Below, piece by piece: positions 1-64,000 of a stretch of DNA of 64,000 bases (position 1 is its first letter; the number at the start of each line of letters is the position of its first letter). Source of the DNA: Candidatus Woesearchaeota archaeon (GTDB lineage Archaea > Nanobdellota > Nanobdellia > SCGC-AAA011-G17 > PNOQ01); assembly GCA_964497715.1 (NCBI GenBank), contig CAZCDH010000001.1, forward strand, positions 25,343 through 89,342. The letters are read 5' to 3'. Under the pieces are notes generated by a model that worked only from the letters and a program-made list of their open reading frames with translations, did no database searches and was not told where the DNA came from. The translations under genes and the position numbers were made by a program.

Positions 1-686
1 GTTGGACCTCTCGAAGTTATGTCTTCTGTGAAAGTTGCATTTACTCTACTTCCGTCAGGTAGTGCACCATCCAGCAAAGGTGTAGCGTATGAAACATACT
101 GTCCGCACTTTTGAGCCAGTTTTTCAACAAAAGATGCTAACTCACCCATTTTAGTATATTTTACAGAGGTTTTTAAATTTCTGAATTTTCTGTGAACTAT
201 GAAAAGTGGAAACTCTGCACCATTACATTCTATATCTTCAATTAGTTGATCTTGCATTAAAGGTTCTATTCTTCCGAGTCCTACAAAATCTCTATAAATA
301 TAATACATAATTTTCAAATAGGATTCCTTAGTTAGAGTTATACGTAATTCGTTTAGGAGCACTCTAACATTTTTTTCTAAATATTCTATCACTGCCTCGC
401 CTTTTTTAACAGCTAAATAACTTATATTGATTAATTCCCTAACACCTTCTTCAATTAGATTTAGAACTTTCTTTTCCTTTGGCGTTAACTCTGGTTCCCC
501 TACTGTGTAAATTACTTCTTTTTGTTTCTCATCCCAATAGATATGGGCATAAGCGTAAGGTGCTATGAGTGCATATTTGACATTGATTTTTTCTTTTTCA
601 ACATCTTTGAAAACTGGTAATTTTGGTACAAGGTCTAGTTTAAATATTGTTTTCTCTTTTTTGTCTAGTTTTGGCAAATTTTTCAT
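1..686 (-). CDS. Type IV pilus/archaellum assembly ATPase (FlaI/PilB/VirB11 family), N-terminal part; the C-terminus runs off the window start.
   Basis: Hand translation of the minus strand from the ATG at 686-684 gives MKNLPKLDKKEKTIFKLDLVPKLPVFKDVEKEKINVKYALIAPYAYAHIYWDEKQKEVIYTVGEPELTPKEKKVLNLIEEG...MQDQLIEDIECNGAEFPLFIVHRKF...LAQKCGQYVSYATPLLDGALPDGSRVNATF. These are the N-terminal domain motifs of archaeal FlaI/GspE-type ATPases (YxxIxYDEK, YxVxEPxLTxEE, EDIxCNG, PxLDAxLPDGSRV). The ORF was not in the supplied track because it runs off the window. Its TAATG junction couples it to the upstream pilin gene. Confidence 0.75.
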   Translation of the reverse strand, partial: MKNLPKLDKKEKTIFKLDLVPKLPVFKDVEKEKINVKYALIAPYAYAHIYWDEKQKEVIYTVGEPELTPKEKKVLNLIEEGVRELINISYLAVKKGEAVIEYLEKNVRVLLNELRITLTKESYLKIMYYIYRDFVGLGRIEPLMQDQLIEDIECNGAEFPLFIVHRKFRNLKTSVKYTKMGELASFVEKLAQKCGQYVSYATPLLDGALPDGSRVNATFTEDITSRGP

Positions 687-5392: not shown

Positions 5393-5506
5393 TTATTTCT
5401 TCTTTTGACACTCTTTGCAGATAGGTTTTCCTTTTACATAAGTTCCACTAATCTTTCCTAAAAAGGTTTCTTCAATAGTTTCCTTACATTCAGTACATTT
5501 AACCAT
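5393..5506 (-). CDS. Small zinc-ribbon protein of 37 aa. It is not in the ORF track.
   Basis: Minus-strand translation gives MVKCTECKETIEETFLGKISGTYVKGKPICKECQKKK, with CxxC-x20-CxxC. It sits between the TrmB regulator and the EamA transporter. Confidence 0.35.
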   Translation of the reverse strand: MVKCTECKETIEETFLGKISGTYVKGKPICKECQKKK

Positions 5507-5536
5507 AAAAATAAAAAGTTGGTTTCGCTTATAAAT

Positions 5537-6328
5537 CTACTTGTCTACAGTAGTTTTAGTTAGCGATTCCAGTGCTCCGGCAAAAAATGGCGCGTTTATC
5601 CATACACCCACATCATAAGAAGGATGTATTGCTTCATCATCTGTTACCATGAATAGAACTTCTTTTCCATCAACAACAACAAATCTCGCATCAAGGTTTT
5701 CAACATTCTTAATTTCAGCGTGTTTTGAGATATCTTTCATTTTCCCAATATCCTCTTGAGATACTGGTGCTGCAATTTTTATTGAAACTCCTTTTTTTGC
5801 TAACTTTGCAAATAAATGAGATAGTGCTTCGGTTTTTCTCGGTAGACCTTTTTCAGTAGTTACAATTGTTACAGAATCTTCTGCTTTCTTAACCATTGAC
5901 TCCAAGTGTGTGTATATATTATGCCTACCTCTTATTGAACCAGAAAGATCTGTAGGTTCAACAAATTCTACACCTTGTGTGTGAAGATTTGTTAGCTCAG
6001 TTAGTACATCAGTATTTGATAGATCTTTTAATTTTTGAATATTTTTAGTAGCATCCTCTTTTATAGATTTTTTAACACGCTCAACAACTTCTTTAGGTTC
6101 GACTGCTAAGTATTGGATTGGTTTTCCAAGCTTCATCATTACAAAACCTTTTTTCTCCAATGATTCTAAAACGTCGTATGTCCTTGAACGAGGTACATCT
6201 CCAATGTCGGATAACTCTCCTGCTGTTGAAACTCCTCTTGACAAAAGTGCTGTCCAAATTCTAACCTCATATAAGTTTAGTCCAAAAAATTGGCGTAGCT
6301 TGTTGAGAAAATCTTCTTTAACTATCAT
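5537..6328 (-). CDS. TrmB-family transcriptional regulator.
   Basis: The N-terminal winged HTH is LYEVRIWTALLSRGVSTAGELSDIGDVPRSRTYDVLESLEKKGFV, followed by a TrmB C-terminal sensor-like domain. Confidence 0.65.
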   Translation of the reverse strand: MIVKEDFLNKLRQFFGLNLYEVRIWTALLSRGVSTAGELSDIGDVPRSRTYDVLESLEKKGFVMMKLGKPIQYLAVEPKEVVERVKKSIKEDATKNIQKLKDLSNTDVLTELTNLHTQGVEFVEPTDLSGSIRGRHNIYTHLESMVKKAEDSVTIVTTEKGLPRKTEALSHLFAKLAKKGVSIKIAAPVSQEDIGKMKDISKHAEIKNVENLDARFVVVDGKEVLFMVTDDEAIHPSYDVGVWINAPFFAGALESLTKTTVDK

Positions 6329-6429
6329 TTATTTTAAACCCCTGAGTAACACCCCTCTTTTTATAAGTATTACAACCGATAAGTACTATATTAAAGTGGT
6401 GATATATAAAGATTATTATTGTTAAGTGA

Positions 6430-8091
6430 TTATTTTGTTTGAGATTTGTGAAGTTTTTTCACCCTTTCTAGATTATCAATATCTTTGAATCCTAAATCTT
6501 TTCTTAGTCTTATAACTTTTGGAAATCTTAGTGCAAATTCACTTTTGTACGTCGGTGATTTCTGAATTTCTTCATAACCTACTTCTAAAATTATTTTAGG
6601 TTTTAGTAGTACATGTTTACCTTTTTGTTCAGTTATTAGAGGTTTTAATTCGTTTGTTAACATCTCAAAAGTTAATTCTGCATCTTTTTCTGCAACTCCT
6701 GTCCCAACTTTCCCGATAGTTAATAGATTATTCTTATCTCTGCATGCCAAAGTGAAAGATGCTAACCAATCTGATCTTTTCCCTTCTCCCCAATCCGCTT
6801 CTATGATTACTAAGTCTAAATTCTCTTTTGTTGGCTTTAGTTTTACCCATCCACCAACTCTTCTACCTGGGATATATTCTGATTCAATATTCTTTATCAT
6901 CACTCCCTCATGTCCATCTTTCAAAGCTTTCTTGTAGAATTTTTCAACTTCTTTTTCTGAATCTGTTATTAATTTTTTTGTGATTACTATTTTCCTAGTT
7001 TCTTCTTTTGTAACTTCTTCTAGAATTTTCCTTCTTTCTTTCTGTGATATAGTTAATAGAGATTCCCTATCTTTACTTATTATATCAAACAGATTTATTT
7101 CTACAGGAGTTTCTTCTGCAGATTTTTCAATATCGTATTTTCTTCTTATTCTTTGAGAGATTGTTTGAAATGGTAAGTGTTTTTTTGTTTTTGGATCATA
7201 ACCAACTAGCTCCGAATCTAAGATGCATTCTTTTAGTTTTATATTCTCTCTAATTGTTGGAATAATTTCTTCGAATTGTTTTGTAACATTCTCTAGCCTT
7301 CTTGTAAATAGAGTTATTTCATCTCCTTTTTTATGAATCTGAAGTCTAAACCCATCTAGTTTCTGATCGACTAGTGCAGGCGTCCCTACTGCCTTAAATG
7401 CCTCTTCTATTGATTCCACTCTAATTGCAAGCATAGGATTTATGGGTTTCCCTGTCTTCATTTTTAAAGATTTTAATTTATTATTTTTTGCCGCTATTGC
7501 CACCTCTGCAAAATCATTTGTTAGGTTGTATGAGTTCTCTATCTCTTTTGATTCTTTTGAGAATGCTTTAGCAATTGAATCTTTTATAACTCCATCTTTT
7601 ACCCCAATCCTTAGATCTTCGATTAGGGTCCTAATTATGTATTTAGCTTCTTCTGGTTCTGCAGAAGCTAGTAGCTCGATAATGTATTGGATCTTTTTAG
7701 TTACTGTCCCTTTCCCTTCTAGCTCTGCAAGTTTTTGTATATTATTGAAAACCTTATCAACTGTTAATTTTGTTTTAAATAATGAGGTTTGTTTTGCTTT
7801 CGTTATCTGTTCCTCCACTACGATTCCTAAGTCCCCTTTCTTTACCCACTCTTTTTCTAGGTTATTTGTTGAGACTCCTGTTGCTGAGTTAATTGCTTTT
7901 AGAACTAATCTTGAAGAAATGCCTGTCTTTCTTTCGTCCCACTTTGGGAATACCTTTCCTTGTAATAAGTAAATTACTTTTTCTAGATCTTTAGTTTGTT
8001 TTAGAAGTTCTGAGATTATTTCTGTTTTTTCTAATCTTTTTGTGGTTGCTTCTAATTTATTGTATGTTTCTGTTAGTGTTGAGTATTTCAT
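6430..8091 (-). CDS. lig: ATP-dependent DNA ligase.
   Basis: It has the KxDG adenylation motif (VDQKLDGFRLQIHKK), later ligase motifs (EGVMIK, WVKLK) and an OB domain. At 553 aa it is typical of archaeal Lig1-type ligases. Confidence 0.8.
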   Translation of the reverse strand: MKYSTLTETYNKLEATTKRLEKTEIISELLKQTKDLEKVIYLLQGKVFPKWDERKTGISSRLVLKAINSATGVSTNNLEKEWVKKGDLGIVVEEQITKAKQTSLFKTKLTVDKVFNNIQKLAELEGKGTVTKKIQYIIELLASAEPEEAKYIIRTLIEDLRIGVKDGVIKDSIAKAFSKESKEIENSYNLTNDFAEVAIAAKNNKLKSLKMKTGKPINPMLAIRVESIEEAFKAVGTPALVDQKLDGFRLQIHKKGDEITLFTRRLENVTKQFEEIIPTIRENIKLKECILDSELVGYDPKTKKHLPFQTISQRIRRKYDIEKSAEETPVEINLFDIISKDRESLLTISQKERRKILEEVTKEETRKIVITKKLITDSEKEVEKFYKKALKDGHEGVMIKNIESEYIPGRRVGGWVKLKPTKENLDLVIIEADWGEGKRSDWLASFTLACRDKNNLLTIGKVGTGVAEKDAELTFEMLTNELKPLITEQKGKHVLLKPKIILEVGYEEIQKSPTYKSEFALRFPKVIRLRKDLGFKDIDNLERVKKLHKSQTK

Positions 8092-56227: not shown

Positions 56228-56352
56228 CCCTAATTTGTTGCCAAGCCTATAATTTGTTAATCCCTAGTTATTTTTAAGTGCTTCGAATTGATTGAACCTG
56301 ATTTGTCTAGTTTAGTAACTTTTATAAAACAAAAATGATTCTAAAAGTTAAT

Positions 56353-56427
56353 GGACCTGTAGCCTAGTCTGGATAAGGCGTCAGCCTTCTAAGCTGAAGA
56401 TCCAGGGTTCAAATCCCTGCAGGTCCG
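56353..56427 (+). tRNA. tRNA-Arg (anticodon UCU).
   Basis: GGACCTGTAGCCTAGTCTGGATAAGGCGTCAGCCTTCTAAGCTGAAGATCCAGGGTTCAAATCCCTGCAGGTCCG. The anticodon loop is CUUCUAA. Confidence 0.8.
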
Positions 56428-56430
56428 TTT

Positions 56431-56501
56431 GGGTCCATGGCCAAGCGGTAAGGCACGAGGTTGCAGCCCTCGGATCCTGGGTTCGATTCCCAGTGGGCCC
56501 T
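56431..56501 (+). tRNA. tRNA-Cys (anticodon GCA).
   Basis: GGGTCCATGGCCAAGCGGTAAGGCACGAGGTTGCAGCCCTCGGATCCTGGGTTCGATTCCCAGTGGGCCCT. It lies 3 nt after tRNA-Arg. Confidence 0.8.
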
Positions 56502-57337
56502 TATAATTGATTTAGGTAGTCCCTTTTTAGCTTGAAGCCGTTTCTTTTGGCTAGCTTTGTTATCGCCTTATCTATGCCTGAACCGTATTGTGCAGCTATT
56601 TTTTTTCTATTTGCAAACTCGATAGGTATTCCAAGATCGATTGCTAGTTCTCTAAGAATGATTTTATCTCTTTCTATGTCGAATTTCTCTTTGATTGGAA
56701 ATGCCATGGATTGTTTTATCACCTCTTCATCTAGCAAGGGCGCATTTATAATTACATTTAGATTGTTTGCTATTGGTATGTCTCTGCTCAGGTCTCTCTT
56801 CCAAGTAGTTTTAAGGCCGTTCCAGCACTCTTTTTCAGGATTTTCTGAAGTCCTATATCTTTTATAGCCTACGAATAATTCCTCTGCCCCTAGGCCTGAA
56901 AATAGGTTTGATTGGTTGTCTTGTTTAGCTAAATCTGCTGCAATATGGACTACTGTCCCTATACTTAGTTTTACTGTATCTCTTTCTTTTAGTATTTTAA
57001 TTGTTTTCTTTAGATAAATCTCTACCTCATCTAGAGAAACTATTTTTGATTTTAATTTAAAACCTAGAGTGGTTGCGATTTCTTCTGCCGCCTTCAAATC
57101 TTTTGAATTTTCAATTCCTATAGAGTAACAGGTAAAATCTTTATTTAGTTTTTTTAGAATAAACGCTATTAGTGTTGAGTCTATTCCTCCTGAGAATAAG
57201 ACCGCATTGTCATCTTTTGCTTGTTTTTTGATAGATTCTATTATTGATCCTTTTAGTTGTTTTTTAGAAGGTTTTATTTTTGTTTCTTTGATACTCTCTA
57301 TTCTAGAAATCCAATTAGCTTTAGGTATTAAATCCAT
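56501..57337 (-). CDS. PP-loop ATP pyrophosphatase superfamily protein (asparagine-synthetase-C-terminal / LarE-like).
   Basis: It has the SGGIDS PP-loop at residues 49-54. It is 278 aa with no Zn-finger cysteines. Confidence 0.45.
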   Translation of the reverse strand: MDLIPKANWISRIESIKETKIKPSKKQLKGSIIESIKKQAKDDNAVLFSGGIDSTLIAFILKKLNKDFTCYSIGIENSKDLKAAEEIATTLGFKLKSKIVSLDEVEIYLKKTIKILKERDTVKLSIGTVVHIAADLAKQDNQSNLFSGLGAEELFVGYKRYRTSENPEKECWNGLKTTWKRDLSRDIPIANNLNVIINAPLLDEEVIKQSMAFPIKEKFDIERDKIILRELAIDLGIPIEFANRKKIAAQYGSGIDKAITKLAKRNGFKLKRDYLNQL

Positions 57338-57369: not shown

Positions 57370-59367
57370 TTATCTCTTTATTGAAGTTCTTCTTAGCAAT
57401 AGTACAAAATAAATATTTATGATTACTAATGCTAGAACTCCCAATAACCAGAAAGTCGTTTTTAATCCGTTAGCTCCGAACAAGTCACTGATTGCCGCAC
57501 CTGTTATGAATGAAAATGGCCATGATCCATCTGCACCTTGTAAGTCAATTACTCCTGAGTTGTCGGCATTGTCATCGTCATCGTCTGAACCATCGTCAGT
57601 TGAACCATCGTCAGTTGAAGGTGCACAGTTTCCTGCGACACTCATTGTTTTTGAGTCGTATCCAAGCAGATTATCGTTCCTATCATAAGCCCAAATTTTT
57701 ACTACATAATCTCCATCTGTAGAGTTTCCAGGAATTGTGAAAATGAACATCTCTTCTCTTTCTCTGTCATCATCATTATCTGAATCTAACTCAAAAGGAT
57801 GAGAAGTTTCAATTATATCTAACTCATTAACAGTTAGTTTCAGATACATCTCTCTCTGATCAGAATCTCCAGTATTTACAACAGTTGTAGTTATTGTCAT
57901 TTGACTTCCACATTGGGGATCTAAAGGAGTTATATCTAAAGAAGTTATAGTAACTTCATCATCTTCTTCCTTTACTACTTCTATTTTTTCATTGAACAAA
58001 AATTTAACTTTTGTTTCTTCATGATATGTGTCGTCGTCATCAGGATATCCTTTGATGTATACTTCAACAGAATATCTATCATCAGTATTTGGAGTCTCAT
58101 CTATATTATATGGAACTCTGAAATTAAATTCTTCATTATCTCTTGTTTCTTCATCATCTAGATTGAATTCACTTGTTATTTCTAAATCGTCTCCATCTAG
58201 TTCCATGTTAATTATTGTTACTCTCACTTCAACATCATCAACATCAAAATTTTGAAGGTTTTCTATATCGAACTCTATATCAAAAGAATCTCCAGGATTC
58301 AAATCACTCTCAGGATTCAAATCAAAATTATCTAAATCAAAAAGATGACTTTTTATTTCTGATGTGAAAACTAAGGTTTCTGTTGATACATTATTGGATA
58401 CCTTTACTAGGTAACCCATATCTTCACCAAAAACTATAGGTTGTGAATCTGATATTGTGTAAGTGTAAGCTATCTCTACAGAAGCATTAGGTTGGATGTT
58501 TTCTAAGTTTTGAGTTTCTGAGATTGCTAGAGATATATCTTCGCTTTCTCCATCATCTTTTGCTTCTTTTGTAATCGTAAAACTCTGAACAGTATCTCCA
58601 GTGTTTGTGATAGTTATATTTCCTTCAACTACCTCCCCAAGATAAAGAGCACCGTATGAAAAATCGGATATTGTAGTAAATCCTGAATCAATAACTTCTG
58701 TTACATTTATTGTAACTGTTGCAGTATTTGAATTATTAGTTTCATCTGATACATAATATGTAAATGAATCTGAACCTACAAAATCTGTTGTTGGATTATA
58801 AGTTGCCACATCTTCATTTATTGAAACTGCTCCATTTGATGCATTAGAGACTGAATAATTTAATACATCGCCATCTGCATCTGTTGCATTTAGTGTAATT
58901 GAGATAGGGGAGTCTTCTTCAGTTTCTACAGATAGATCATATGCGACCGGAGGATTATTAACTGGAGCAGGAGTTACATTTATTGTTACTGTTGCAATGT
59001 TTGACTGGTATTCTCCATCTCCACCGTAATATGTAAAGTTATCTTCTCCAATAAATCCCAAAGTAGAAGTATAAATCACTATGTTTGTCCCTTCTTCAAG
59101 TACTGCAGTTCCATTTGCGGGCATATCTAAAAGACCATATTCAAGTAAATCTCCATTTTCATCAGTTACATTCAGATGTATACTAATTTCTTGGCCTTCA
59201 AGAATTTCTACTTCGATATCATGTGCAACCGGTGCATCATTTTCTCCGCCAAATCCGAAAAGTCCAAATAATCCGTCCATAAAACCAGCTTCTGCAACTG
59301 GCGCAGCCATACTAAAAGATAATAATAGTGCTAGCATAATACTCATAATTTTGTATGATTTATTCAT
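57370..59367 (-). CDS. Secreted cell-surface protein with tandem Ig/cadherin-like domains, an Asp/Ser-rich linker and a C-terminal TM anchor with a basic tail.
   Basis: The signal peptide is MNKSYKIMSIMLALLLSFSMAAPVAEA. Two repeats of about 95 aa (…DFVGSDSFTYY…TATVTINVT…) follow. The C-terminus is STDDGSTDDGSDDDDDNADNSG…TTFWLLGVLALVIINIYFVLLLRRTSIKR. Confidence 0.6.
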   Translation of the reverse strand: MNKSYKIMSIMLALLLSFSMAAPVAEAGFMDGLFGLFGFGGENDAPVAHDIEVEILEGQEISIHLNVTDENGDLLEYGLLDMPANGTAVLEEGTNIVIYTSTLGFIGEDNFTYYGGDGEYQSNIATVTINVTPAPVNNPPVAYDLSVETEEDSPISITLNATDADGDVLNYSVSNASNGAVSINEDVATYNPTTDFVGSDSFTYYVSDETNNSNTATVTINVTEVIDSGFTTISDFSYGALYLGEVVEGNITITNTGDTVQSFTITKEAKDDGESEDISLAISETQNLENIQPNASVEIAYTYTISDSQPIVFGEDMGYLVKVSNNVSTETLVFTSEIKSHLFDLDNFDLNPESDLNPGDSFDIEFDIENLQNFDVDDVEVRVTIINMELDGDDLEITSEFNLDDEETRDNEEFNFRVPYNIDETPNTDDRYSVEVYIKGYPDDDDTYHEETKVKFLFNEKIEVVKEEDDEVTITSLDITPLDPQCGSQMTITTTVVNTGDSDQREMYLKLTVNELDIIETSHPFELDSDNDDDREREEMFIFTIPGNSTDGDYVVKIWAYDRNDNLLGYDSKTMSVAGNCAPSTDDGSTDDGSDDDDDNADNSGVIDLQGADGSWPFSFITGAAISDLFGANGLKTTFWLLGVLALVIINIYFVLLLRRTSIKR

Positions 59368-59472: not shown

Positions 59473-60081
59473 TTAAGTGGATTCTTTGTAATCTGGAGCA
59501 CTTATTTTCTTCTTTTTTGACGGTTTTGGGGCAGGAGGGATAATTCTGTCCCTAACTTTTGGAATAAGTACATGAACTAATCCAATAAATATCGATAAAG
59601 CTATTAATATTAAGAAAAATGCTATTGTTGTGAACCTATCTATAGCTATATCTGTGTAAACCAAAATTATCGCTACAAATGCCATGTAGTTGATTGGAAG
59701 TTTTGAAGATATCTGAAATGCTATCTTTTTAGGTAGTAGGTGGAAAAAATCAATTAACATAAGGATTAGTCCCATGAATATTACTGTTGCAGCTATTGAT
59801 ACTTTTATTGGATCAGTTATCAAAGCGTTTTGATATATGTGGTTTGCTAAGTATGCCGATACAAAAATTAAAACAAGTACATTACCAAATGCAGTATTCC
59901 ATCCTAATTCTTCTTCTTTGTACCTTCCAAAATAAAGCTCCATTAAAAAAAGTGTTAAAAGTAGGGGTGCTAGTAACCACAACATCTCAGGATTATTTAT
60001 TGGTGATGAGATTATCTCAATCATTCTCCCTTTTATTATTGGAGTTGATTCTACAACAGCTTGCCAGTAAGTTTGTATCAT
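59473..60081 (-). CDS. Hypothetical integral membrane protein (202 aa).
   Basis: Polytopic. It forms an ATGA overlap with the PAP2 gene upstream. Confidence 0.35.
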   Translation of the reverse strand: MIQTYWQAVVESTPIIKGRMIEIISSPINNPEMLWLLAPLLLTLFLMELYFGRYKEEELGWNTAFGNVLVLIFVSAYLANHIYQNALITDPIKVSIAATVIFMGLILMLIDFFHLLPKKIAFQISSKLPINYMAFVAIILVYTDIAIDRFTTIAFFLILIALSIFIGLVHVLIPKVRDRIIPPAPKPSKKKKISAPDYKEST

Positions 60082-60653
60082 CTCTTGAACACCTTTCTAA
60101 GTTTTTTTGATAATTTATATTTTGATTCTAAGTATATATAGAAATTTCCACTACCAAATCCGATTATTGAACCAGAGATTACATCACTGAGATAGTGAAC
60201 TCCTAAATAAACTCTACTGAATGCCACTACTATTGCTATTACCAACCATATCCACTTGAATATTGGATACTCTTTGTTGAAAAAAGCTAGGGGGGTAAAG
60301 ATAAATGTTGCGTGTCCGCTTGGGAATGAAAATGTTGAAGGAGAGGTAAGTGCATCAACTAATGGTCTCGGCCTTGCTATTATGTGTTTTAACCCTAGTG
60401 TTATTATTGCTGCTGTTGCAAAACTTGCAACTAAAGGAATTATTAACTTTCTTTTGTTTTTTGTAGAAAAGAATAATAATGAAACTGCAAAAACTAATAG
60501 TTCTGCACTAAATACTTCTAGAGATATCATAAAAGTCGATAGTTGTTCTGTTCTGAATTTTAAAATAAAATTTAATATCTGGTTATCAAATAATAAACTT
60601 ATTAGTAACGCTATCTTCAATATTACAAACGAAATTATATATCCTCTTTTCAT
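60078..60653 (-). CDS. PAP2-family phosphatase (polyprenyl-diphosphate phosphatase-like).
   Basis: It has the three PAP2 motifs: KX6RP (KHIIARPRP), PSGH and SRVYLGVHYLSDV. Confidence 0.7.
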   Translation of the reverse strand: MKRGYIISFVILKIALLISLLFDNQILNFILKFRTEQLSTFMISLEVFSAELLVFAVSLLFFSTKNKRKLIIPLVASFATAAIITLGLKHIIARPRPLVDALTSPSTFSFPSGHATFIFTPLAFFNKEYPIFKWIWLVIAIVVAFSRVYLGVHYLSDVISGSIIGFGSGNFYIYLESKYKLSKKLRKVFKR

Positions 60654-60692: not shown

Positions 60693-61772
60693 CTATTCTA
60701 TATTAAATTTGGCCCCTTCTAGATTATATGCATTCATATAATACCAATCATTACCTTCTTTATAGTATGCACCAACTGTTGATTTTTCTGATCCCTTCGG
60801 ACCATATGTTTCAATTCCTGCTTGAACCCATAAACTTGCTAAATTTTTAGAACTAAACTCTGTAAAACCTTCTCCAGTTAGTTTTAAGAAGTTTTTTATT
60901 AGTTCTGGGCTGCCAACACTACTCTTTTTTGTAGAGGGTGCCTTAGTAGAATATCCAAGGTGTACAGAATGAGGACCTTTAGTCAACATAGTATTTATTA
61001 CTTCGATTTCAGGACGCTCAGCATATTTTGGATGAATTACAGAATTACAAGCCATATAAAAACTAACTTTAGTATCTTTTGAAACTTCTAAATCGGTGAG
61101 ATCATACTCGTCCGTATAGTCGCTATGATATACTGGATCCATCTGATCATGATGACCACTAAAAAATCTTATTGTAGTCTTAGTATCTGATCCAAGATCA
61201 TACCTATAGTTTCCTATTTCTAGTTTATTTCCCTGTGCACTTAAAGATTCTATCAAATAATCTGCACTTCTCCTATCTCCTCCACTATATAACCAGATAG
61301 AAGTTGTTCCGCTAGGATCAATAAATTTCAAAGGATTATTTCTAACATAACTATAAGCTTCATTTTCCTTGACTGGATCAACCGAAGTAAATCTTCCTAG
61401 ATTTGGAAGATAGTATCTAGCTCCAAAGTAATACAATTTGGATTCGTCTAGTTCTTTCCCAGTTGCAAATGAGAATTTTATTCCAGAGTTTTTTATCTCT
61501 TGTCCAAAAGGCAAAGAGTTGAATTCGCTTTCTATAAGTCCATCTGAATCTGTAATTATCCTATTAGAATTGATTCTATCTGAATGATAATAGGTTATAT
61601 CTCCTCCCTTAATCGAAGCTATTAAACTTGATCCATAAACATATCTAGTTATGCTCCCTTCAGAATTTTTATTTTCAATCTGATTAGATACTTTCTCAAT
61701 TCCTATAGAACTACCAACAGACATACTAATTATAAGAAACACTAACACAAACGATAAAATCCTCTTTTTCAT
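60693..61772 (-). CDS. Secreted RHS/YD-repeat core-domain protein (polymorphic-toxin-like) with an uncharacterised C-terminal domain of about 205 aa.
   Basis: The signal peptide is MKKRILSFVLVFLIISMSVGSSIG. It has the terminal YD repeat YYHSDRINSNRIITDSDGLIESEFNSLPFGQEI and the RHS core hallmark ARYYLPNLGRFTSVDPVKENEAYSYVRNNPLKFIDPSGT, then a variable C-terminal domain. Confidence 0.75.
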   Translation of the reverse strand: MKKRILSFVLVFLIISMSVGSSIGIEKVSNQIENKNSEGSITRYVYGSSLIASIKGGDITYYHSDRINSNRIITDSDGLIESEFNSLPFGQEIKNSGIKFSFATGKELDESKLYYFGARYYLPNLGRFTSVDPVKENEAYSYVRNNPLKFIDPSGTTSIWLYSGGDRRSADYLIESLSAQGNKLEIGNYRYDLGSDTKTTIRFFSGHHDQMDPVYHSDYTDEYDLTDLEVSKDTKVSFYMACNSVIHPKYAERPEIEVINTMLTKGPHSVHLGYSTKAPSTKKSSVGSPELIKNFLKLTGEGFTEFSSKNLASLWVQAGIETYGPKGSEKSTVGAYYKEGNDWYYMNAYNLEGAKFNIE

Positions 61773-61846
61773 GATTAAGTTATTAGTTTGGAGAATTTAT
61801 AAGGTTTGTTAGAAATTGTTATAAGTTAAAAGTAATTTACAAAAAT

Positions 61847-62389
61847 ATGGAATATGAAAGGAAACTTGGGATTAGATTATTTTTAGCAGTTTTTGCTATG
61901 ATATTCTACAATATTATATTCTATGAGAGTTTGAAACCCTTAACAATATGGGGAAGTTATTTTTCTTTGTCACTCTTTGAGTCAGGATTAAGTATTGGTA
62001 CCAGTACTATTTCTGCAGGGATCCAATCTTTCGAGTTTGTTCATGCTTGTATAGCTAGTTCTGCATATTTCTTACTGTTCATACTTATTATATCAACAAA
62101 AGATATCAGATTTATTAAAGGAATAAATATGATGTTGTTAGGCAGTTTGTTAATTCTTCTAATGAATATATTTAGAATTGATTTGTTAATTCTTGCCTCT
62201 TTAAAGTTCGGTAAAGTTTGGTTTGATGCTATCCATATGATCTTTTGGAAATTTCTTTCCACCATTTATGTTGCAATGGTTTGGATATTTTTAATTTGGA
62301 AATTCAAAGTCAGAAACATTCCAGGTTATAGTGATATTAAAGAATTGAAAAAACATATTATTTTAGATAAGAGAAAGTCCAGAAGATAG
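61847..62389 (+). CDS. Small polytopic membrane protein with exosortase/archaeosortase-like Cys and Arg motifs (tentative).
   Basis: About 5 TM helices. FEFVHACIASSAYFLL has a Cys within a TM helix. NIFRIDLLILA has an Arg within a TM helix. The spacing and context resemble the xrt/art active-site residues, but the protein is short (180 aa). Confidence 0.3.
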   Translation: MEYERKLGIRLFLAVFAMIFYNIIFYESLKPLTIWGSYFSLSLFESGLSIGTSTISAGIQSFEFVHACIASSAYFLLFILIISTKDIRFIKGINMMLLGSLLILLMNIFRIDLLILASLKFGKVWFDAIHMIFWKFLSTIYVAMVWIFLIWKFKVRNIPGYSDIKELKKHIILDKRKSRR

Positions 62390-63710: not shown

Positions 63711-64000
63711 TTAGCCGAATAGTGATCCTAGTCCGGCTGCAGCTTCTTCTTTCTTTTTCTCTTCCTTAGCTTCCTCTTCTTTAGCTTCTTCTTTGGATTC
63801 TTCTGCTTTTCCATCAGAGCTAGGAGCTGCGGAAACAGGTGTAACTGCGGCTTCTTTGATAGCTTGTTCTATATCTACACCATCTAGTGCTGCGACCAAA
63901 GCTTTCACTTTAGTTTCATCCACTGTAGCGCCAGCTGCTTCAAGAACCTTTTTTACGGATCCTTCGTTAACTTCTTTTCCTGCTTTATGCAATAATAATG
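63711..64000 (-). CDS. rpl12: 50S ribosomal protein L12 (acidic stalk, P1-like). It is partial; its N-terminus runs off the window end.
   Basis: …LLLHKAGKEVNEGSVKKVLEAAGATVDE…EEAAAGLGSLFG has the classic archaeal L12 C-terminus and an acidic KEE tail. The frame stays open to position 64000. Confidence 0.8.
   Translation of the reverse strand, partial: LLLHKAGKEVNEGSVKKVLEAAGATVDETKVKALVAALDGVDIEQAIKEAAVTPVSAAPSSDGKAEESKEEAKEEEAKEEKKKEEAAAGLGSLFG

Follow-up and report, generated by a model that had tools for sequence, protein, structure and literature searches.

The DNA analysed here, called the window below, is a stretch of 64,000 nucleotides (nt) from a contig of a Candidatus Woesearchaeota archaeon (CAZCDH010000001.1, positions 25,343 to 89,342). 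On its reverse strand, between a PAP2 phosphatase gene (downstream) and a divergent pacearchaeosortase gene (upstream), lies a gene of 359 codons whose product joins a signal peptide, the last part of a rearrangement hotspot (RHS) protein and a C-terminal domain of a new sequence family (Table 1). The open reading frame (ORF) starts with ATG and has the position and length given to it by the first-pass annotation, a reading of the letters of the window made without database searches. We call residues 1-156 of this mini-RHS protein the head and residues 157-359 the tail; 204 residues (156-359) remain past the DPSG motif (152-155), close to the figure of about 205 for the unfamiliar sequence in that annotation.

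Transcription and export of the mini-RHS protein

The TATA-like box TTATAAAT precedes the gene at a distance which is usual in this genome, TATA-like motifs being most frequent 26-35 nt 5' of the ATG among 53 ORFs of the window. The identical motif, TTATAAATTC, stands at -30 ahead of the RHS gene and of PAP2 alike. Judged from this placement, the box is probably the promoter of a leaderless, monocistronic RHS transcript. Because both genes have a TATA motif at -30, the RHS gene is most likely monocistronic, and PAP2 (undecaprenyl-diphosphatase-like) probably forms with the next gene, encoding a 202-amino-acid protein, a separate transcription unit which is unrelated to the RHS gene.

The N-terminus of the protein, MKKRILSFVLVFLIISMSVGSSIG, combines a basic n-region with a hydrophobic core of 13 residues, and residues 3-16 form a helix in the AlphaFold model. 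Both the sequence and the model thus agree with the Sec signal peptide first proposed from the sequence, and inspection of this signal peptide revealed no lipobox cysteine.

An RHS core on a head without a shell

The RHS repeat-associated core was recognised by the TIGR03696 hidden Markov model over residues 88-155, with 67.5 bits for a curated cut-off of 32.5 (E = 1.1e-18), as the first-pass annotation had anticipated. Similarly, the YD-type segment that it had pointed out is present, with ITYYHSDRINSNRIITDSDG at residues 59-78 and LPFGQEI at residues 87-93. A sequence search of the PDB aligned residues 53-156 with the last repeats and the core of the TccC3, YenC2, teneurin and type VI secretion system (T6SS) Rhs structures (E of about 1e-10), the core motif falling on the ...SSDP...LLDPDGL of TccC3. 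R119, D132 and D152 occupy the aspartyl-autoprotease positions and, together with G155, are invariant in 120 family members, and we infer that the protein would cleave itself at DPSG. The residue following DPxG in 115 family proteins is mostly M (60), R (17) or T (10).

Before the core, the confident part of the full-length AlphaFold model is limited to five short strands (residues 42-46, 50-55, 58-64, 70-74 and 80-83), the mean predicted local distance difference test score (pLDDT) of ten-residue blocks being 80-93 across residues 41-80. A closed shell of many YD repeats spans several hundred residues; in the window protein the YD-type strands are confined to residues 42-88, and residue 155 is already the end of the core. 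The Pfam RHS_repeat model gave no match to the protein at E <= 0.1, so that the label mini is accurate.

One head and many tails in DPANN archaea

A search with the full protein retrieved 792 proteins at E <= 0.001, of 340-540 amino acids, nearly all of which align over the first 43% or so of the query. The best-matching loci, about 40 from species-representative genomes, belong to Woesearchaeota, Pacearchaeota, Nanoarchaeota and other DPANN bins, and a genome may have up to five or more mini-RHS copies. From this number of homologues and of copies per genome, RHS-derived polymorphic proteins are common in DPANN archaea, and not rare as the first-pass annotation had assumed for archaea in general. 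In the 43 best-matching loci, nearly all from DPANN archaea, the gene has a median length of 390 codons, with a core that stops near residue 160. Full-length RHS proteins, of 1,849 and 2,089 amino acids, were found in one Theionarchaea bin and one Bathyarchaeota bin.

To compare heads and tails, 115 of the best 120 homologues were cut at DPxG, which yielded 112 tails of at least 60 amino acids. The 115 heads form a single BLAST cluster, the 112 tails 73 unrelated ones; a conserved N-terminal part thus carries unrelated, interchangeable C-terminal domains. Together with the TIGR03696 match, this bears out the polymorphic-toxin-like architecture that had been suggested for the window protein. 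N-termini resembling a signal peptide occur in 93 of these 115 proteins. Tail length is confined to a narrow range (median 236 amino acids, interquartile range 217-250). The tails with known domains contain LysM (4), Por_Secre_tail (4), Peptidase_M15_4 (2), Peptidase_C39_2 (1), Ntox47 (1) or a pesticin lysozyme (1), which are mostly extracellular or antibacterial activities. The three closest relatives that we examined stand alone among housekeeping genes, and the genes downstream of them are convergent. In the literature searched, which excluded the main review of archaeal polymorphic toxins, we found no paper, among those listed, that joins RHS/YD repeats with DPANN taxa.

In two DPANN contigs, the vicinity of mini-RHS genes also holds recurring large proteins that combine a Pilin_N-like N-terminus with Laminin_G_3 and a poly-gamma-glutamate hydrolase domain (L018/L085, 11661-14255; L007, 1551-4205).

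A recombination mosaic at the core

The contig L001 (JGI 3300009008), from a sister strain of the same species, is 98.8-99.1% identical to the window at the nucleotide level on either side of the gene. Its interval from the sortase to PAP2 contains two tandem mini-RHS genes where the window has one, for a net difference of 1,239 bp, and there is no ORF of the size of an immunity gene between these two genes. The window gene is a three-part mosaic of them, and both of its junctions fall within the DNA of the core or at its DPSG limit (Table 1). Its first part is identical to the first L001 gene; its last part is identical to the second gene, the tails being 100% identical and the heads 56%, and the identity to this second gene restarts just upstream of the DPSG codons. 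Between these parts, a segment of 97 nt differs from both. One crossover alone cannot yield a middle segment that differs from both parents, which requires a minimum of two exchanges or a third donor. The fetched loci contained no donor of the 97-nt segment, the best match being 84%; the core DNA is 79-84% identical across most family genes from other genomes. Tail exchange at a conserved junction, as read from these alignments, is the kind of recombination by which polymorphic toxin loci are defined.

A tail with a predicted caspase fold

The tail was nearly invisible to sequence searches. A word-indexed search found only two identical copies of it, and an exhaustive HMMER search of 1.84 billion representatives added four remote relatives (P0121-P0124). 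Two of them, P0123 and P0124, have mini-RHS heads (TIGR03696, 74.5 and 78.9 bits), while in P0121 and P0122 the tail domain ends an unrelated secreted region of about 370 amino acids; a metagenome scan with a three-sequence tail alignment returned the P0121 and P0122 loci only. Because its relatives occur on both scaffolds, the tail is an autonomous, mobile and very rare module. One sub-threshold match to DUF6345 (17 bits) was obtained, on P0123 only. By sequence, the tail fits none of the described clan CD families (C11, C13, C14, C25, C50, C80 and CHAT).

The alignment of the five tails (22-35% identity) has as invariant residues G164, G206, H207, H208, C242, P248, L272, G273, K293, W315, Y337, K338 and W343. 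The AlphaFold model built on this alignment (pLDDT 77.6; predicted template modelling score 0.83) is an alpha/beta fold in which GHH follows one strand and the cysteine follows the next main strand (Table 1). Foldseek placed procaspase-7 and caspase-6 at the top of the matches to this model (E = 3e-4, probability 1.0), and clan CD peptidases led both fold searches. The model thus predicts the alpha/beta/alpha caspase-hemoglobinase fold, with a conserved histidine, then a conserved cysteine, each after a hydrophobic strand. The caspase-fold (clan CD) reading of the first-pass annotation therefore agrees with the predicted fold, with the His/Cys order and with the invariance of GHH and the cysteine, and it comes from structure prediction and fold searches, the sequence searches having remained empty. 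The order of the two residues stands as annotated, and their spacing, given as about 36 residues, is in fact 34-35 (GHH, 206-208; C242). These data support, and do not prove, that the tail is a new sequence family within the caspase fold, outside any described family.

A YkuD-like neighbour of the tail family

In all four contexts of the tail outside the window, a convergent gene that encodes a secreted protein with a YkuD domain lies directly downstream of the tail gene (Table 1). In one of them (L083) a contig break falls inside this gene, and the motif GCIAV that remains is the same cysteine motif as the WT[LR]GCIAV of two of the three other partners. The YkuD-like partners are 27-47% identical pairwise. 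Since the linkage holds on both N-terminal scaffolds, it belongs to the tail itself. The YkuD-like protein might inhibit the tail outside the cell or confer immunity there, or it might be another enzyme with the same substrate as the tail, for instance cell-wall peptides.

At two of these loci, genes of about 250 codons (L089, 3134-3886 and 6784-7539; L090, 202-993) encode an archaeal class III (pilin-like) signal, K/RGQVTIF, and extend into the start of genes for large secreted proteins, one of which carries the caspase-fold tail on a non-RHS scaffold. This two-gene cassette (class III signal gene and large protein) is repeated in L089, where the second large protein has DUF4846.

Neighbouring genes

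The window has a G+C content of 31-33%. Its archaeal markers are the pacearchaeosortase and an acidic ribosomal stalk protein, and TFIIE-alpha is found on the syntenic contig. The PAP2 gene is where the first-pass annotation had it. The divergent ORF upstream, described there as a small membrane protein that might be an immunity or processing partner, exists at the coordinates given and encodes a pacearchaeosortase; the partnership does not hold, as the RHS protein has no sorting signal and the adjacency recurs only in L001. More precisely, a tblastn search of the 81 RHS-selected loci (L001-L081) found the sortase beside a mini-RHS gene only in this same-species contig. The C-terminus of the RHS protein, ...NAYNLEGAKFNIE, has no hydrophobic helix and hence does not provide the motif, transmembrane (TM) helix and basic tail of an archaeosortase sorting signal, so that the protein is not a pacearchaeosortase substrate. 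A surface protein of 665 amino acids does end in a signal of the sorting type, and for this reason it is likely to form an enzyme-substrate pair with the pacearchaeosortase, about 2.5 kb away. We found no mention of pacearchaeosortase in the literature searched.

PAP2 and the 202-amino-acid membrane protein were also considered as immunity proteins, and this reading found no support: PAP2 has its own TATA-like box, the second tandem gene of L001 follows the first so closely that an immunity gene would not fit between them, and neither gene of the window recurs beside mini-RHS genes beyond L001 among the same loci. The search for a cognate immunity gene, for orphan cassettes and for further copies of the RHS gene, along the lines suggested by the first-pass annotation, found none in the window. 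A series of ORFs of about 460-470 codons at 21.8-31.3 kb, taken as a possible array of paralogues, consists of ordinary housekeeping genes. The tRNA-Arg(TCT) and tRNA-Cys(GCA) genes (56352-56501, forward strand) are 2 nt apart and abut the end of an Asn-synthase-like gene (56501-57337, reverse strand).

Table 1. Positions of the mini-RHS gene, its parts and its neighbours in the window, and of the genes of other loci referred to in the text. Positions without a locus name are those of the window; aa, amino acids.
Feature	Position	Strand	Remarks
mini-RHS gene	60693..61772	-	359 codons and stop; ATG start; protein P0001 identical
TATA-like box	61795..61802	-	begins 30 nt 5' of the RHS-gene ATG
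Sec-type signal peptide	61707..61772	-	residues 1-22, approximately; no lipobox Cys
YD-type beta-strands, about 5	61509..61649	-	residues 42-88; only remnant of the RHS shell; AlphaFold, TccC3 alignment
RHS repeat-associated core	61308..61511	-	residues 88-155, with the DPSG motif; TIGR03696
D152-P-S-G-T156	61305..61319	-	predicted self-cleavage site, head/tail boundary; from motif position
C-terminal domain (tail)	60696..61304	-	residues 157-359; rare new family, predicted caspase-hemoglobinase (clan CD-like) fold
G206-H207-H208	61149..61157	-	candidate catalytic His, directly after a strand (tail residues 45-49)
C242	61047..61049	-	Cys of MACNS; candidate catalytic Cys, directly after a strand (tail residues 80-84)
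Mosaic, gene nt 1-355			identical to the first L001 gene
Mosaic, gene nt 356-452	61321..61417	-	97 nt, 3' half of the core; differs from both L001 genes (about 75-80% identical)
Mosaic, gene nt 453 (approximately) to stop			identical to the second L001 gene
PAP2	60078..60653	-	PF01569, 75.6 bits; downstream of the RHS gene
202-aa multi-TM protein	59473-60081	-	no family match; overlaps PAP2 by 4 nt; no TATA-like motif
665-aa Big_9/cadherin surface protein	57370..59367	-	C-terminus …TTFWLLGVLALVIINIYFVLLLRRTSIKR resembles a sortase-type TM-plus-basic sorting signal
Pacearchaeosortase	61847..62389	+	NF033505, 118 bits (cut-off 80)
Acidic ribosomal stalk protein	63711..63992		archaeal marker
L001 first gene (A)	L001 6740-7969		409 aa; different tail of 253 aa, no recognised type
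L001 second gene (B)	L001 8025-9050		341 aa, P0002; begins 55 nt after the first gene
YkuD-like gene	L089 5630-6286	-	Pfam YkuD, 63.4 bits; end overlaps that of the tail gene by 4 nt
YkuD-like gene	L090 2863-3666	-	Pfam YkuD, 71.1 bits; ends overlap by 4 nt; WTLGCIGL
YkuD-like gene	L082 1397-2101	-	Pfam YkuD, 27.8 bits (cut-off 23.4)
Convergent gene	L083 1897-1998	-	contig break inside; last 33 residues start with GCIAV
Core-less RHS/YD neighbour	L031 63-5474		mini-RHS gene at 5481-6704
Core-less RHS/YD neighbour	L020 9294-14990
Core-less RHS/YD neighbour	L010 1860-4364
Core-less RHS/YD neighbour	L013 3231-6839
Core-less RHS/YD neighbour	L033 4639-8469
Core-less RHS/YD neighbour	L003 10809-11729

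Proposed function and alternatives

From the architecture of the protein, the polymorphism of its family, the recombination mosaic, the predicted fold and the invariance of key residues, we propose, with a probability of about 0.6, that the product of the gene is an effector exported by Sec, from a DPANN family of shell-less mini-RHS proteins, whose self-cleaving core would free a caspase-fold Cys/His tail outside the cell. First, the protein would be exported by the Sec pathway. Second, by analogy with the RHS/Tc proteins, the aspartyl autoprotease of the core (R119, D132 and D152) would cut at or just past DPSG, at about residue 156. Third, the freed tail, of about 23 kDa, would act outside the producer, most likely as a peptidase directed at the envelope of another cell, be it a host, a competitor or a bacterium, and not within the producer. 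Fourth, the core DNA, about 80% identical between most paralogues, would be the site where tails are exchanged by homologous recombination. A tail acting outside the producer would explain the absence of an immunity gene. Moreover, the lack of such a gene here and beside several close relatives, together with the peptidoglycan-directed nature of other tails, suggests targets which the producer does not have.

Several observations weigh against this proposal. The core of the known RHS/Tc proteins is a plug within a shell of about 700 residues or more, which the window protein does not have, and in all solved RHS proteins known to us the core is enclosed by a shell; AlphaFold was uncertain over residues 91-160 of the window protein despite 120 aligned sequences. 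The link of the tail to clan CD is at the level of the fold only: Pfam gave no match to the window tail at E <= 10, a sequence profile search of the PDB gave none either, and hhalign of the tail with a caspase-3 sequence entered by hand returned a probability of 0.1. The position directly downstream of the gene, where a cognate immunity gene would be expected, is taken by PAP2, and the YkuD-like gene is absent from the 64-kb window and from L001. Finally, tails and downstream ORFs could hardly be compared for co-variation: 13 pairs of homologous tails were available, both members had a downstream ORF in two of them, and one of these, a bacterial locus, was concordant.

The protein may, as a possible if tentative alternative, be a secreted protease or a peptide ligase/transpeptidase which serves the archaeon itself, in surface remodelling for attachment, in the processing of surface proteins or in peptide scavenging, with the RHS head as a handle for export and release. 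This would fit the lack of an immunity gene at the locus and the position of the RHS gene among envelope genes (sortase, PAP2 and the Big_9/cadherin surface protein). Clostripain, legumain and GPI (glycosylphosphatidylinositol) transamidase, which are clan CD processing enzymes or transpeptidases, are all among the structural matches, and the YkuD-type, transpeptidase-fold partner of the tail relatives resembles one half of a two-enzyme module more than of a toxin-immunity pair. However, a single head with 73 types of tail, tandem arrays and recombination at the core are the signature of a conflict system, and the family does include Ntox47, lysozyme and peptidase tails; furthermore, beyond L001 the sortase and PAP2 do not recur beside other family members in the 81 loci searched.

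The missing shell might also be supplied by another gene. In this rather unlikely case, of a split cocoon, the mini-RHS protein would be a TcC-like subunit comprising plug and cargo, and a separately encoded YD protein without a core would form the shell around the tail of about 200-250 amino acids. Large secreted RHS/YD-repeat proteins devoid of the Rhs core do adjoin mini-RHS genes in six DPANN loci (Table 1). In L031 the gene of such a protein (1,804 amino acids; RHS_repeat, 96 bits; YD_repeat_2x, 53.7 bits; no match to TIGR03696) stops some 6 nt ahead of a complete mini-RHS gene (core, 65.6 bits). In the L020 locus, which belongs to a complete Woesearchaeota genome, the gene of a 1,898-amino-acid protein with a TcB-type SpvB N-terminal domain comes after three mini-RHS genes in tandem. 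A limit set by the size of the capsule would predict the narrow range of tail lengths despite the 73 unrelated tail clusters, and AlphaFold left the core unplaced in the protein modelled alone. Against this, there is no gene for a core-less YD shell in the 64-kb window or in L001, the three closest relatives examined have no such neighbour among their housekeeping genes, some of the large neighbours have very few YD motifs (about 5 in the 1,898 residues of the L020 protein), and the signal peptides of both partners imply, unlike for TcB-TcC, an assembly outside the cell. Carried further, this line of thought becomes unlikely: DPANN archaea would have split the RHS/Tc capsule anew into a secreted core-less YD shell gene, sometimes with SpvB, and small swappable genes for plug plus cargo, the cargo being capped at about 220-250 amino acids; the window protein would be one of the latter, with a caspase-fold cargo functionally paired with the secreted YkuD-type protein as its extracellular inhibitor or immunity protein, or as a co-enzyme acting on cell-wall peptides.

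It is quite improbable that the tail is not a peptidase, with GHH and the cysteine binding a metal or a ligand in a flavodoxin- or Rossmann-like (alpha/beta) fold or in a binding module devoid of activity. There is no match to any peptidase family at the level of the sequence, the motif is GHH where clan CD usually has His-Gly, and the fold model was built on five sequences, but the invariant histidine and cysteine occur in the order of clan CD, with a hydrophobic strand ending at each of the two. Lastly, it is hardly tenable that the gene has no function, as what is left of a decayed full-length RHS gene or as one of its silent orphan cassettes: bacterial ORFs made of a short core fragment and a tail usually are orphan cassettes that lie behind a full rhs gene, as in the arrays of the bacterial loci L077 and L079, but the window gene has an intact ORF, a signal peptide and a TATA motif at the distance typical of the genome, its compact architecture recurs in well over a hundred of the DPANN-type proteins examined, with invariant core residues, and its tail is 100% conserved between two strains.

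Significance and comparison with known systems

DPANN archaea are ultra-small and mostly episymbiotic, and their ways of attacking, attaching to and defending against other cells are largely unknown. To our knowledge, classical polymorphic toxins have been thought scarce in archaea. Hundreds of secreted, recombining effectors that have kept nothing of an RHS protein but its self-cleaving end would thus make a testable set of candidate interaction factors, and, because several family members carry peptidoglycan-directed domains, antagonism towards bacteria would be implied. For RHS biology, they raise the question of whether the core cleaves and functions without a shell, or whether a shell is supplied in trans. 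As to the caspase fold, the tail would add to it a minimal, sequence-orphan family, with a conserved YkuD-type neighbour in the members outside the window.

Similarly to the Rhs/YD toxins and the TcC subunits (TccC3, YenC2, Tse5 and RhsA), the window protein has a core with RYY...GR...DP...DPxG and the conserved aspartates, followed by a variable tail; the tails are swapped at the core, and residues 53-156 align with the ends of the known structures. Unlike them, it has about five strands in place of the YD shell of some 700-1,200 residues, no PAAR, VgrG or TcB fusion, a Sec signal peptide on its mini-head, a DPANN host and no adjacent immunity gene. Some DPANN loci recall the TcB-TcC cocoon of the ABC (Tc) toxins in that they pair a large core-less YD/SpvB protein with a small gene for core and cargo; they differ from it by a split point much nearer to the C-terminus, by signal peptides on both proteins and by the absence of any TcA that we could see, and the window does not have this arrangement. 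Bacterial orphan rhs-CT cassettes share with the DPANN genes the short piece of core with its tail, the tandem arrays and the recombination at core DNA, whereas the DPANN genes are complete, each with a promoter-like motif, a start codon and a signal peptide.

Like the clan CD peptidases (CHAT, 8tl0; gingipains, 4ief and 4rbm; separase; clostripain, C11; MALT1; metacaspases; caspases), the tail has its histidine before its cysteine, each after a hydrophobic strand. It differs from them by a sequence identity of 8-15% without profile similarity, by a minimal size of about 200 amino acids and by an additional C-terminal three-stranded sheet with the invariant W/YK/W. The polymorphic toxins of bacteria are known to include a class of caspase-like C-terminal domains, named Tox-Caspase (Zhang et al. 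2012, PMC3482391). As in that class, a caspase-like His/Cys domain is here the C-terminal-most module of a polymorphic scaffold, RHS scaffolds being included there (PMC3482391). Unlike Tox-Caspase, which was reported from bacteria and caudoviruses only (PMC3482391), the window tail is archaeal and has no Pfam clan CD match; its motif is GHH...C with a short spacing of 34 residues, and the partner of its family is YkuD-like instead of Imm36. What is unusual, and not described in the literature searched, is the abundance in DPANN archaea of shell-less heads bearing signal peptides, and a sequence-orphan caspase-fold family with a YkuD-type neighbour. In other respects, the system is of a known kind: an RHS-derived polymorphic effector with a Tox-Caspase-like tip.

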